DNA of 63,100 nt, counting the filler. It is 5 parts of 5 records of this genome, joined end to end, with 100 filler letters (N's around TTAATTAATTAA, not from the genome) between each part and the next. Parts side by side here need not be neighbours in the genome. Positions count along the whole stretch, not along the records: positions 1 to 31,668 come from SRR20825010_3569; 4 more parts are not named here. One strand, given 5' to 3'. The position numbers and the translations under genes are program-made. Below are positions 8,206 to 59,820 of this stretch, piece by piece. The notes under the pieces were generated by a model, which did no database searches, was not told where the DNA came from, and worked only from the letters and a program-made list of their open reading frames with translations. How positions within the stretch are numbered: the first letter of the stretch is position 1; every line of letters starts with the position of its first letter.

Positions 8206-8721
8206 ATGACAGATTTAGAAACCATGTTTGCATCACGCATCTCGAAAGAAGCCATGATCGAAACTGTCAATGGAGATCGTGGAGGTTTTGAGGAGGCTGT
8301 TTACATTGCACTTTCATCCACTGCCCCACAATGCTGGCGGGCTGCCTGGATTCTGGGGCATTGCACAAAGAAAAATGACCTGCGACTTAGGCCCCATGCG
8401 GATACATTCATAGCCGCCATTGGGCACAAGCAAGATGGCCATCAGCGCGAATTGATCAAGATTCTTTTAAAAATAAAACTGAGCGAAGAGCAGGAGGGGA
8501 AGTTGTTTGATAGCTGCATGAACATCTGGGAGGCTGTAGGAAAAAGTCCTTCTGTGCGGTATTTTGCCTTTCTGTACCTCTCGGATGTGGCGATGAGGTT
8601 TCCGGAATTGAAGAATGAGATCAGCTTCCTCACACAGCAGGAATATTTGGAACCCCTCTCTCCGGGAATCCGCCGCAGTATTGACAAAAGAATCGCAAAG
8701 CTGTCTAGCCTTCTGGACTGA
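8206..8721 (+). CDS. Hypothetical alpha-helical (HEAT-like) protein
   Basis: 171-aa ORF; WRAAWIL..GKLFDSC..FPELKNEI pattern typical of Bacteroidota hypothetical proteins. Confidence 0.65.
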   Translation: MTDLETMFASRISKEAMIETVNGDRGGFEEAVYIALSSTAPQCWRAAWILGHCTKKNDLRLRPHADTFIAAIGHKQDGHQRELIKILLKIKLSEEQEGKLFDSCMNIWEAVGKSPSVRYFAFLYLSDVAMRFPELKNEISFLTQQEYLEPLSPGIRRSIDKRIAKLSSLLD

Positions 8722-8776
8722 TTTGGGATTTGGGAATGGGGGATTTGGGATTTGGGAATGGGAGATTTCGGATTTC
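8720..8776. repeat. Heptamer tract GATTTGG/GAATGGG/GATTTCG
   Basis: About 8 units seen directly after the stop codon. Confidence 0.85.
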
Positions 8777-8787
8777 TTTTGGGTTCT

Positions 8788-8954
8788 CTTCTAGCGCAAG
8801 CGTCCGCTTGTGATTTAAGTGAAAACTCTCAATTTCACGTACTCGCAAAGCGAACAACTGCCGGGATTTATGAATTTCGGATTTGGGAATGGGGGATTTC
8901 GGATTTGGGGATTTCGGATTTCGGATTTCTACTACGTAGAAAACAATAGGAAAA
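8788..8954 (+). repeat. ~170-bp composite direct repeat, copy 1 (REP-like palindrome, heptamer tract, conserved tail)
   Basis: CTTCTAGCGCAAGCGTCCGCTTGTG...CTACTACGTAGAAAACAATAGGAAAA; matches 9846-10027. Confidence 0.9.
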
Positions 8955-9038
8955 GTTTTAGATTAGGGGAATTGTAAAGCGGGTATGTGGCAAAAGGTAC
9001 ATATATCGGCATGTTATGTGTTCTTTTCTATAAAGACT

Positions 9039-9791
9039 ATGAGGAAAACTTTTCTATTTTGCATTCTATTAATTCTATCTCAGACTTTACTGCATTCACA
9101 GACAAGATATAAAAAGAAAAGAAGTAGAAATTCTATTGAGGGATTTGGAATTGAGTTACCAATTGGAATTATGAGTTCTTCAATAGATTTACCCTTACTT
9201 CTTCAAGGTCAAATTCCAGCCGTGGAAGGGGGAACAGGTATTGATTTTGGGTTAGGAGTTACATATGAAAACCATAAGAATTTAAATTTAAGAGCTGGGT
9301 TTCACGTTTGGAACTCTCCATTCAAACCAACGGTAAATACAAATAAGAACGATAAAAGAGATTTTGTTATTGAAGACGGTAAGCTAACTTATTACGGAAT
9401 GTACACAAGGATTGAATGGGGCAATCCATATTTTTTCATTGGAGCTGGTTTAGATTTTTCATTTGCAAATACCTATCAGGCAGATAGGATTTATTATGAA
9501 AACAATAATAAGACAGACCGTGAAAATAATTTTAGTAGTTCTGTGCTAACTGATAATTTCAATAACCAAGTTTATTTTAAAGCTAATGCTGGATTTAAAA
9601 TTCCATTTAAGAATTATATTATCAAACCCTATTTTGCCATCGGTGCGGCTTTCACATCTATTTATCCAACACCAGAGGTTAAAGAATGGAGTAATGGATT
9701 TTATACAATAGTTTATGACGATCCTCAAATAATTGATCTTCAATATATTCCAACTTTTAACTATGGAATTTCCGTAGAATATAAGTTCTAA
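9039..9791 (+). CDS. Outer membrane beta-barrel protein, AT-rich
   Basis: Signal peptide MRKTFLFCILLIL; amphipathic strands; C-terminal YGISVEYKF. Confidence 0.7.
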   Translation: MRKTFLFCILLILSQTLLHSQTRYKKKRSRNSIEGFGIELPIGIMSSSIDLPLLLQGQIPAVEGGTGIDFGLGVTYENHKNLNLRAGFHVWNSPFKPTVNTNKNDKRDFVIEDGKLTYYGMYTRIEWGNPYFFIGAGLDFSFANTYQADRIYYENNNKTDRENNFSSSVLTDNFNNQVYFKANAGFKIPFKNYIIKPYFAIGAAFTSIYPTPEVKEWSNGFYTIVYDDPQIIDLQYIPTFNYGISVEYKF

Positions 9792-9845
9792 AAACACATA
9801 ACAATATGTATAATGATGCGCTTGCGTGCTTTCTGCAAACTGCCC

Positions 9846-10027
9846 CTTCTAGCGCAAGCGTCCGCTGGTGCTTGAAGTGAATACTCTCAATTTCATGTTC
9901 TCGCAAAGAGAGCAACTGCTGGGATTTTTGGATTTCGGATTTGGGAATGGGGGATTGTGGATTTGGGAATGGGGGATTTCGGATTTCGGGATTTTAGTTT
10001 TCTACTACGCAGAAAACAATAGGAAAA
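9846..10027 (+). repeat. ~180-bp composite direct repeat, copy 2
   Basis: CTTCTAGCGCAAGCGTCCGCTGGTG...CTACTACGCAGAAAACAATAGGAAAA. Confidence 0.9.
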
Positions 10028-10050
10028 CTTATTTCAGGACGCCACACAAA

Positions 10051-10386
10051 CTACTGTGATAAAAGATACGATTACTGCTTGATGCAGATCAGAAAGTGTG
10101 CATTGCAAGGTAATTACTGCTTGGTGCAGATCGAAAAGTGTGTGATGCAATGTAAACACTGCGTATTGCAATCTGATAGATGTGTAATGCAGTGTAATTG
10201 CTGTGTTATGTATTAGAAATGGTGCGTTATGCAGAAAGAATACTGAGTTCTGCACTACAAAAAGTGTGTTCTGCACTAAAATGACTGGTTATTGAAAGAA
10301 AAAGAATGTGATTGGATAGCCAAATACTGTGTTATGAACTCGCATTTTTGCTTACAATGGAACAAAAACTGTGATGCTATTTGAAA
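10051..10386. repeat. Degenerate tandem array of 16 x 21-bp units; central units carry a TGY-N5-GCA palindrome
   Basis: TG at unit positions 5-6 in all 16 units; TGCA at positions 12-15 in 9 units; near-duplicated 42-mer at 10072-10113 and 10114-10155. Confidence 0.9.
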
Positions 10387-10434
10387 TAAAGTAGGTGCGA
10401 TGTATATTTAGTGAGGAAAAAACGGTTATTGGAC

Positions 10435-10776
10435 ATGTTGAAACTGAACCTCACCTACATGATGCGCCTAAGGGGAATATCCAGTCCCTATTCGTATATG
10501 AAAAAACTGGGCATGAGCCACGATGTAGCCCGGCGACTGGCCCTCAATCAGGCTGTGAGCCTGAATCTGAATCATTTTACCGCACTTTGCACGGCACTTT
10601 ATTGTACGCCAAACGACTTGCTTGAGTATACAGCCGGCAACATGCAGACGGATGCAAAGCATCCCTTGCACACCCTGAAACGTGACACGGCCAGTCTGGA
10701 AAGCATAGAGAAGCTGCGCAAACTAGCTCCCGATAAAATCAGTCAGCTCAAAGAATGGCTGGAGGGTTTGGAGTGA
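10435..10776 (+). CDS. XRE/Cro-C1 family helix-turn-helix protein
   Basis: LCTALYCTPNDLLEY motif; ATG 10435 preferred, GTG 10411 possible. Confidence 0.8.
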   Translation: MLKLNLTYMMRLRGISSPYSYMKKLGMSHDVARRLALNQAVSLNLNHFTALCTALYCTPNDLLEYTAGNMQTDAKHPLHTLKRDTASLESIEKLRKLAPDKISQLKEWLEGLE

Positions 10777-10816
10777 AGGAAAATATTTGAAATGGTATAA
10801 ATTACTGCATATCGCA

Positions 10817-11959
10817 ATGAGATATCTGATCCTCTTACTTCTACCTTTTTCACTTTTCAGCCAATCTGAAGAGGAGTTTCATTCAACTGAACAAGAGAAC
10901 TACTATAAGAGTCTGGATCGCGACTATTCATTCAACCCAACTCCAATCGACATTGCTTCCAAGAACTGGTTTGATCATGTTAGAATTGTTGAAACAACTG
11001 GGAACTACAAAGCTCCAGATGTCAACGAGAACATGATGGAGAAAATTGGTCGAGATATCGATTTGTTAGAGCCTGCAAAACTTCAAATGATAATCAGAGA
11101 GTCACAAATTGTTGCCCGTGCAGAACGAAACGGAACAACTGTAATCCTCTACATGGACTCCAAATTCGATGAATTTATGTGGGGTGAACCTGGCTACTGG
11201 ATCGAGCTTAACACAAATTGTGAGAGTAGATTCTACTACACTGGACTTACCAAAAACTATTTCTTCAACCTTTATAAAAGTGAACTCCCAGTGTGGAAGA
11301 ACGACTCAATTCTTCAATTCAGAGCTCTGAACGTTAGAATGACTAAACCCTTTATTCATCCAATTGAACCTCCAAAATATGAGACGCTCAGAGAGAACAT
11401 GATTATTGAACTTAACCTGAACCTAATCATGAGAGACTCAGATGGGGATGGTTTGACAGATGTTGTAGAAGATAAAATGATGACCAACCCAAAGTCTACT
11501 GACACGGATGAAGATGGTATCTCAGATTTGGATGATACTAACCCAAGATTCAAGAGCATTCGAACCAACAGAACATTGATGTTTGCTGGCCTTCTTGATG
11601 CCTACACAAATGACACGCTGAAAATCCATAATAACCAAATAATCAATCCAAAGAGACCATCACGAATTAATGAACTTGAACCAAGAATTTACCTCATAGT
11701 TTCAGATGATCCTGATGTTCAAAGAACTCCTTTTGATTATAACCAATACATCATTTTGTCAATCTCTGAATTCGAAGAATATCACAAGAAATATCCGGTT
11801 TCATTTAACGACATAACCATTTCACGAACATTCAAACTTGACAACTACCCTAACGCTTTTAAGATTTCAATATCCAGGAACATAGGAGGTGAAGAATACA
11901 TAGTAGTCGAACGAAAGAACGGATACGACATAACTATGTATTCAACTTGGATACATTAA
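10817..11959 (+). CDS. Secreted hypothetical protein with thrombospondin type 3-like calcium-binding repeats
   Basis: Signal peptide MRYLILLLLPFSLFS; DSDGDGLTD and DTDEDGISD. Confidence 0.65.
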   Translation: MRYLILLLLPFSLFSQSEEEFHSTEQENYYKSLDRDYSFNPTPIDIASKNWFDHVRIVETTGNYKAPDVNENMMEKIGRDIDLLEPAKLQMIIRESQIVARAERNGTTVILYMDSKFDEFMWGEPGYWIELNTNCESRFYYTGLTKNYFFNLYKSELPVWKNDSILQFRALNVRMTKPFIHPIEPPKYETLRENMIIELNLNLIMRDSDGDGLTDVVEDKMMTNPKSTDTDEDGISDLDDTNPRFKSIRTNRTLMFAGLLDAYTNDTLKIHNNQIINPKRPSRINELEPRIYLIVSDDPDVQRTPFDYNQYIILSISEFEEYHKKYPVSFNDITISRTFKLDNYPNAFKISISRNIGGEEYIVVERKNGYDITMYSTWIH

Positions 11960-12129
11960 CAGAGCTCGAACAAATGCTCTCGCGCAATCGGCTTTTCCGA
12001 GTGATTAATATTCTGAAAGCCTATGGCTTGAATAACAGGGTTTGAGAATGTCTCATTGGCTGTAGTGAATGCAGGCAGAATGCCTGATAAATAGAGGTCA
12101 CTGGGCAATGCCGAGCGACTACAAGAGAT

Positions 12130-31668: not shown

Positions 31669-31768
31669 NNNNNNNNNNNNNNNNNNNNNNNNNNNNNNNN
31701 NNNNNNNNNNNNTTAATTAATTAANNNNNNNNNNNNNNNNNNNNNNNNNNNNNNNNNNNNNNNNNNNN
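31669..31768. other. Artificial contig linker
   Basis: N44-TTAATTAATTAA-N44, with stops in all six frames. Confidence 0.98.
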
Positions 31769-44423: not shown

Positions 44424-44523
44424 NNNNNNNNNNNNNNNNNNNNNNNNNNNNNNNNNNNNNNNNNNNNTTAATTAATTAANNNNNNNNNNNNNNNNNNNNN
44501 NNNNNNNNNNNNNNNNNNNNNNN
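44424..44523. other. Artificial contig linker
   Basis: N44-TTAATTAATTAA-N44. Confidence 0.98.
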
Positions 44524-53479: not shown

Positions 53480-53579
53480 NNNNNNNNNNNNNNNNNNNNN
53501 NNNNNNNNNNNNNNNNNNNNNNNTTAATTAATTAANNNNNNNNNNNNNNNNNNNNNNNNNNNNNNNNNNNNNNNNNNNN
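53480..53579. other. Artificial contig linker
   Basis: N44-TTAATTAATTAA-N44. Confidence 0.98.
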
Positions 53580-59720: not shown

Positions 59721-59820
59721 NNNNNNNNNNNNNNNNNNNNNNNNNNNNNNNNNNNNNNNNNNNNTTAATTAATTAANNNNNNNNNNNNNNNNNNNNNNNN
59801 NNNNNNNNNNNNNNNNNNNN
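59721..59820. other. Artificial contig linker
   Basis: N44-TTAATTAATTAA-N44. Confidence 0.98.

Follow-up and report, generated by a model that had tools for sequence, protein, structure and literature searches.

On balance, we think it somewhat probable that a rigidly phased array of 21-bp repeats and the small gene that it precedes make up a self-contained autoregulatory unit, which would belong to an undescribed Bacteroidota subfamily of HTH_26 proteins and would act by cooperative self-repression. From the sequence data set out below we infer that the HTH protein binds the array, the state in which it oligomerizes there and its repression of the gene. The unit lies in the first contig (1-31668) of the window, by which we mean the whole stretch of 63,100 nucleotides that was analysed, consisting of five contigs joined through artificial N-linkers at 31669-31768, 44424-44523, 53480-53579, and 59721-59820. 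The contigs are taken to come from different organisms because of these linkers and because the GC content of the window climbs to about 0.62 past 45 kb. The one close relative of the HTH protein with a named source comes from a Reichenbachiella assembly, which makes Cytophagales the probable origin of the sequence.

The array occupies positions 10051-10386 of the + strand and is built of 16 degenerate 21-bp units in a rigid register, with the core ACTGTGTT followed by ATGCA. The preliminary description had reported sixteen units in a single register, TG at unit positions 5-6, one 42-bp duplication, and an array end 48 nt before the start codon of the HTH gene, and it proves accurate on each of these points: TG is found in 16/16 units, the 42-bp higher-order duplication is located at 10071-10154 (+ strand, 83% identity), and 48 nt separate the array from the ATG at 10435, which is also the aligned start of the gene. 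Unit position 21 is A in 15/16 units. Identity at lag 21 is 0.502 within the array against a shuffle mean of 0.273 (sd 0.025, maximum 0.356, 2000 shuffles), making it the top lag-21 stretch within the entire window, and identities at lags 42, 63, and 84 are 0.51-0.55. A single block is conserved in each unit, and the spacer columns are scrambled.

A CRISPR array, already discounted earlier, is rejected, as there is no constant repeat with unique spacers, the entire 21-bp unit is degenerate, and the window has no Rfam match. A structured RNA is rejected on fold z-scores of -2.1 and -1.2 and on an Rfam search that gave zero matches for the window and for 20 loci. A live or decayed gene for a heptad-repeat protein, the alternative previously considered, is almost certainly the wrong explanation. 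As had been noted, stops interrupt the + frame in which a Cys recurs every 7 residues, and the 80-aa minus-strand ORF does exist, at 10034-10276; this ORF, and the occasional reading of arrays by gene callers as heptads at a protein's N-terminus (P0105, P0108), are what such a gene has in its favor. It fails across the family, where the comparison of codon-position with DNA-level conservation that had been suggested gave no coding signature in 79 arrays (<85% protein identity), a result that largely refutes it. Column conservation lacks 3-periodicity in these arrays (global p 0.97; window p 0.25), a stop-free frame is present in 35/79 against 32.4 expected, the synonymous share of 0.231 vs 0.216 indicates no bias (p 0.43), and a frame stays open from the array into the gene in 3/79. 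Array peptides are, moreover, unrelated from locus to locus, and the candidate, which would require an open frame biased in codon position and in synonymous changes, is rejected.

The emphasis formerly placed on phased palindromes finds no support. TGY-N5-GCA is indeed present in 8/16 window units, and TGC-N5-GCA in 4/16, yet the unit profile is no more self-complementary than column shuffles (p 0.31). Across the same 79 arrays, p<0.05 was reached in just 2, which rules out a palindromic operator as the family rule and sets these arrays apart from the dyad symmetry of a classical XRE operator. Information is concentrated in a single block per unit across the arrays, in which neither half-period sub-repeats of 10/11 bp nor two information peaks per unit were found.

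The gene (10435-10776, + strand) encodes a 113-aa protein of the Cro/C1 type (HTH_26), an assignment that draws on Pfam, alignment, a structural model, and fold matches. The Pfam HTH_26 match has an E-value of 5.4e-9 and 36.6 bits vs a curated cut-off of 22, and Atlas clusters of the family are 98-100% HTH_26; NCBIfam gave a single weak match among 52 family members, and models of defence systems gave no match among 4 proteins. The protein is laid out as an XRE-like domain (residues 1-66), an HPL motif, and a C-terminal helical pair, and the AlphaFold model (pLDDT 89.9) has the XRE domain at 1-66 followed by two C-terminal helices. In a fold search with this protein the top rows were XRE domains such as Stl, with Z up to 7.3; the best match (Z 7.3) has an rmsd of 1.9 over 64 residues, and the matches cover residues 1-84 only. 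The modeled structure supports an XRE fold with high confidence. The AlphaFold helix at residues 29-36, encoded by 10519-10542 on the + strand, is predicted to be the recognition helix by its likeness to XRE repressors, with its residues mapped onto 434 repressor. The family comprises 536 clusters at 50% identity (E up to 1e-10), with as many as 10 matches in a single genome, and is patchily distributed, being present in 12/251, 34/201, 7/301, 6/151, and 11/101 sampled genomes. Tandem two-domain fusions also occur within it (P0046, P0084, P0109, P0127).

At its downstream end the array runs into a promoter-like site (10380-10410, + strand) consisting of TTTG, 19 bp, and TATATTTA. The TTTG at 10380-10383 sits inside the last array unit, and we take it, in role and spacing, to be the upstream promoter element. 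The TATATTTA at 10403-10410 has one mismatch to TAnnTTTG, the Bacteroidetes promoter motif (PMC6414381). Exact TAnnTTTG is found at -70..-10 in 31/134 family loci vs 5.9 in shuffles. On these letters, the last array unit overlaps a promoter-like site of the Bacteroidota type.

Arrays of this period accompany the family as a whole. The 600 bp upstream of each gene were scored by lag-21/42 identity against block shuffles, with a z of at least 6 counted as an array; L004, L005, L017, L232, and exact duplicates were dropped, leaving 205 loci, of which 149 are family members, and the upstream count was restricted to the 144 family loci whose flank spans 300 bp or more. This search of HTH homologues by autocorrelation, which had been proposed with the original observation, identified 21-bp arrays upstream in 88/144 loci, so the array is a family trait. 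They were found downstream in 1/135 loci, and upstream of other XRE genes in 0/51, a control set in which near-identical phage copies are numerous and Bacteroidota probably scarce. When the 134 loci below 95% identity are considered, arrays are present at 82/97 loci outside two fixed-helix clades, at 0/14 loci of the TPTTATK clade, and at 3/23 of the VPFTAHK clade, in which the best period is still 21 in 18/23. The two clades join with an SH-aLRT of 96 in a quick tree, and their helix is conserved, with a pair identity of 0.88 vs 0.76 at other exposed sites. The median array has 10 strong units, and strong profile matches in and around the 79 arrays are in phase in 581/581 cases. Motifs vary widely from locus to locus, even between paralogs of one genome. 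L197 and L200, family loci that lack a 21-bp array, have high scores at periods 40 and 20 instead.

Repeats of this kind could also be neutral or selfish and have no reader, having arisen through repeated 21-bp duplication and unequal exchange adjacent to mobile small genes. We consider this improbable. The 42-bp higher-order copies, nearly perfect and young arrays such as that of L198 (score 0.99), and the persistence of an array beside a pseudogene in the genome G539 would all fit such an origin, which nevertheless does not account for one conserved block per unit between scrambled spacer columns, for zero out-of-phase units among 581, for a fixed position upstream rather than downstream, or for the same period across unrelated motifs.

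Array motif and recognition helix covary to a modest degree. The sample consisted of 24 non-overlapping pairs of 50-95% identity, and for a set of 11 recognition positions, picked after the per-column table had been inspected, motif similarity gave a partial r of 0.52 (p 0.012) once the rest of the protein was corrected for. The corresponding value for the rest of the protein, corrected for the helix, is 0.20 (p 0.35), and that for other exposed positions is -0.14; of 2000 column sets drawn at random, 0.9% reached 0.52. A column set fixed before any result gave 0.48 (p 0.02), and the plain helix 29-36 gave 0.57. Sliding windows of covariation peak at residues 25-44, with N-terminal windows reaching an r of 0.33. 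Counting against a helix-specific signal are the values for all pairs (helix 0.155 vs rest of protein 0.189) and for distant pairs (0.069 vs 0.074), the pair L108/L116, which combines a motif similarity of 0.94 with a helix identity of just 0.64, and the G539 pseudogene, which has an internal deletion and carries an L094-type Phe together with an L091-type motif. In array-bearing pairs, helix positions change no faster than other exposed positions (0.72 vs 0.73). The nearest array-bearing kin of the window protein, L100, has 63% identity and the same phase; between the two, ACTGTGTT in the first half of the unit is kept and the second half is changed, and the recognition helices differ by D30N and R33S. 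Overall, the covariation of motif and helix is real yet modest, in a small sample of sequences.

In the mechanism that we favor, each unit would be bound by one protomer or by an asymmetric dimer of the HTH protein. Since 21 bp corresponds to two helical turns, the bound proteins would line up on one face of the DNA and touch each other, probably through their C-terminal helices. The resulting chain would spread onto the promoter and repress the protein's own gene, and a divergent gene, where present, would come under its control as well. A large number of weak sites would provide both a steep switch and buffering of the protein, and a joint drift of helix and motif would allow up to 10 paralogs per genome to avoid cross-talk.

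Several known systems resemble parts of this arrangement. BldC of Streptomyces is a small regulator with a MerR-like fold that assembles into a cooperative head-to-tail chain on degenerate direct repeats, whose number varies, and is able to extend over a promoter; its sites are of 9 bp, 2-4 repeats were tested, and its regulon is genome-wide (PMC5859096). The putative HTH chain on degenerate direct repeats over a promoter would be analogous, but differs in that the window protein has an XRE profile and fold rather than the MerR-like winged fold, in the 21-bp step, in the number of units (about 10-16), in having a private motif per paralog, and in that no regulon was seen in G539 for the HTH paralogs. 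With SaPI Stl, CylR2, SinR, and EspR the protein shares an N-terminal Cro/C1 domain followed by a C-terminal helical part. Multi-site autoregulation occurs in XRE/Cro repressors, the classical members of which bind a few palindromes as two-fold dimers, whereas arrays of the window type are long, are palindromic in just 2/79, and have no mobile element or antirepressor gene attached. Direct repeats with 21-bp periodicity are described for the AraC family as taxon-specific promoter motifs, including that of Bacteroides RhaR, in one study (PMC3870299). The 21-bp direct-repeat step at promoters is common to both; the AraC-type systems differ in that they involve another protein family, have a direct repeat instead of a long array, and control a metabolic regulon. 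No description of HTH-linked 21-bp arrays such as these was found in the full-text literature, covered as main texts and mostly from papers outside subscription.

In plasmid centromere and iteron arrays (omega/parS, ParR/parC, TubR/tubC, pSK1 Par), phased repeats lie upstream of a gene, are bound by its product, and are part of its autoregulation. Here, by contrast, the array is accompanied by neither a motor or initiator gene nor a plasmid match, and the chromosomal copies are many and dispersed. The iteron and centromere readings offered previously are left without partner genes and without plasmid or phage matches: no NTPase or Rep gene of the kind seen in partition and iteron systems was found as a recurring neighbor among 134 loci, and no recurring NTPase, Rep, integrase, or transposase was present in neighbor clusters of at least 3 members at these loci, as judged from sequences. 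A tblastn search with a single protein query found nothing among 72,556 plasmids and 50,697 phages, collections in which Bacteroidota elements are possibly thin, and matches in IMG/VR score as generic XRE and have no arrays. We also consider it very improbable that, more broadly, the unit is what remains of a mobile element, be it a centromere, an iteron, or a transposon end, for which the HTH protein serves as adaptor. The patchy spread (12/251, 34/201, and 7/301 genomes), the up to 10 copies per genome among varied and mutually unrelated neighbors (134 loci), and the swapping of flanking genes in relatives would be expected of such a remnant; the missing partner genes, the plasmid, phage, and IMG/VR results, the lack of a mirror array downstream (1/135), and the lack of an empty site in related strains speak against it.

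The neighbors of the window unit are a gene for an OMP-like barrel and an unnamed gene. Four runs of related strains were compared, two of them with identical tables and so possibly one data set, and none held an empty site for the array-plus-gene unit. In related-strain contigs, 10116-10798, comprising part of the array and the gene, aligned with 34 differences and zero gaps. One related-strain record joins 8909 to 10047, skipping 8909-10047, and in a related contig the gene behind the HTH gene (10781-11988) is swapped for 1850 other letters. Likeness between the window and L100 begins near 10056, and together with the related-strain junction this places the approximate 5' edge of the unit, which carries no strand, at 10047-10056. 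The OMP-like gene (8985-9791) is absent in related strains, so that the locus behaves like a cassette slot. This gene is flanked by 22-bp GATTTGGGAATGGG arrays, which form part of a segment duplicated at 8690-8960 and 9790-10030 (142 bp, 88%).

The operator reading first proposed for the array is supported by the upstream arrays of the family, by the helix-motif covariation, and by the family-wide failure of the heptad alternative, but it does not extend to all 21-bp arrays, which also occur without an HTH gene. When 2.35 Mb of sampled DNA was scanned for intergenic arrays at periods 10-40, period 21 accounted for 20/29 matches, of which just 6/20 are at HTH loci, even though two regions were chosen for containing them; a few of the remaining period-21 matches are 7-mer or perfect tandem repeats. 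The same contig of the window contains a second such array, of a different motif (TCAGTAAAAA core), between convergent genes at 2077-2286, followed by a further 21-bp-phased block (ACTTCGGAAGTACC) at 2300-2400. No HTH remnant was found at 2077-2286, and the array adjoins a Phd/YefM antitoxin and YoeB toxin pair (2481-2983, - strand).

The largest recurring neighbor cluster of HTH loci is a family of ~300 aa, present at 12 loci and divergent at 10. Its members combine a helical bundle with a beta-sandwich and lack an HTH domain; 9 proteins gave no Pfam match, and there was no PDB match at E<=0.001. Up to 10 copies occur per genome, in 27/201 genomes, and the loci considered here are L072, L074, L077-L080, L082, L011, L012, L014, L091, and L394-L405. 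From genomes without an HTH match in the 201-genome survey, 12 upstream regions were taken, 2 of them shortened by contig ends. A 21-bp array with other motifs lies upstream in 7/10 loci, and the 1.1 kb fetched upstream contained an HTH gene in 0/10. A deep profile found no family HTH in six of the seven such genomes (G309 left out), most of which are of unknown completeness. As period-21 arrays thus occur in genomes with no detected HTH gene, the period is a wider trait than the HTH family, and the HTH protein cannot read all such arrays; another reader may exist besides it. Separately, the contig G263:C1 carries dispersed palindromic 21-bp arrays with a AATTGCAATT core in about 20 places, and no family HTH was found in G263.

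A tentative alternative, which we hold to be possible though rather unlikely, takes the array as a member of a wider Bacteroidota class of promoter-side 21-bp platforms, read by another factor for which the period matters more than the sequence. In that case the HTH gene would be one of several passenger families, and the link between motif and helix would reflect shared descent. The results of the period scan and the helical-bundle loci with arrays agree with this, as do the two motif blocks at the divergent loci L012 and L014 and the weak all-pairs covariation. It leaves unexplained, however, why motifs are locus-specific within one genome, why the fixed-helix clade lacks arrays (0/14), and why the pair signal is focused on residues 25-44.

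The 4.6-Mb genome G539 speaks for the autoregulatory unit: two multi-unit patterns match HTH loci only, one of these being the pseudogene, and perfect sites lie inside arrays in 17/17 cases for one motif and 9/9 for another. One-mismatch sites outside arrays number 5 (control 0) and 2 (control 5), and this single-site search with two motifs gave no clear trans regulon in G539.

Should this interpretation hold, the family would be a large one in which each gene has its binding site spelled out next to it at least ten times, supplying ready protein-motif pairs from which an HTH recognition code could be learned and orthogonal switches for Bacteroidota built. The unit would also present an XRE protein acting as a direct-repeat chain, not as a dimer on palindromes, and provide a first entry point for tests on the 21-bp intergenic arrays that are frequent, yet unexplained, in Bacteroidota. 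A bolder extension, which we regard as unlikely, is that Bacteroidota possess an unrecognised form of addressing, in which small genes that move horizontally each carry a private 21-bp array as a tag. The HTH family would then consist of hundreds of orthogonal readers polymerising on one DNA face at a two-turn step, and the second, unrelated helical-bundle family of the same architecture would be a new kind of DNA reader.

A conserved element of ~110 bp was also observed behind several HTH copies of G539 and elsewhere in that genome (G539:C1, e.g. 384675-384707). It has no Rfam match and occurs in 9 places, 2 of them at HTH loci; being mostly away from HTH loci, it is regarded as a separate repeat.
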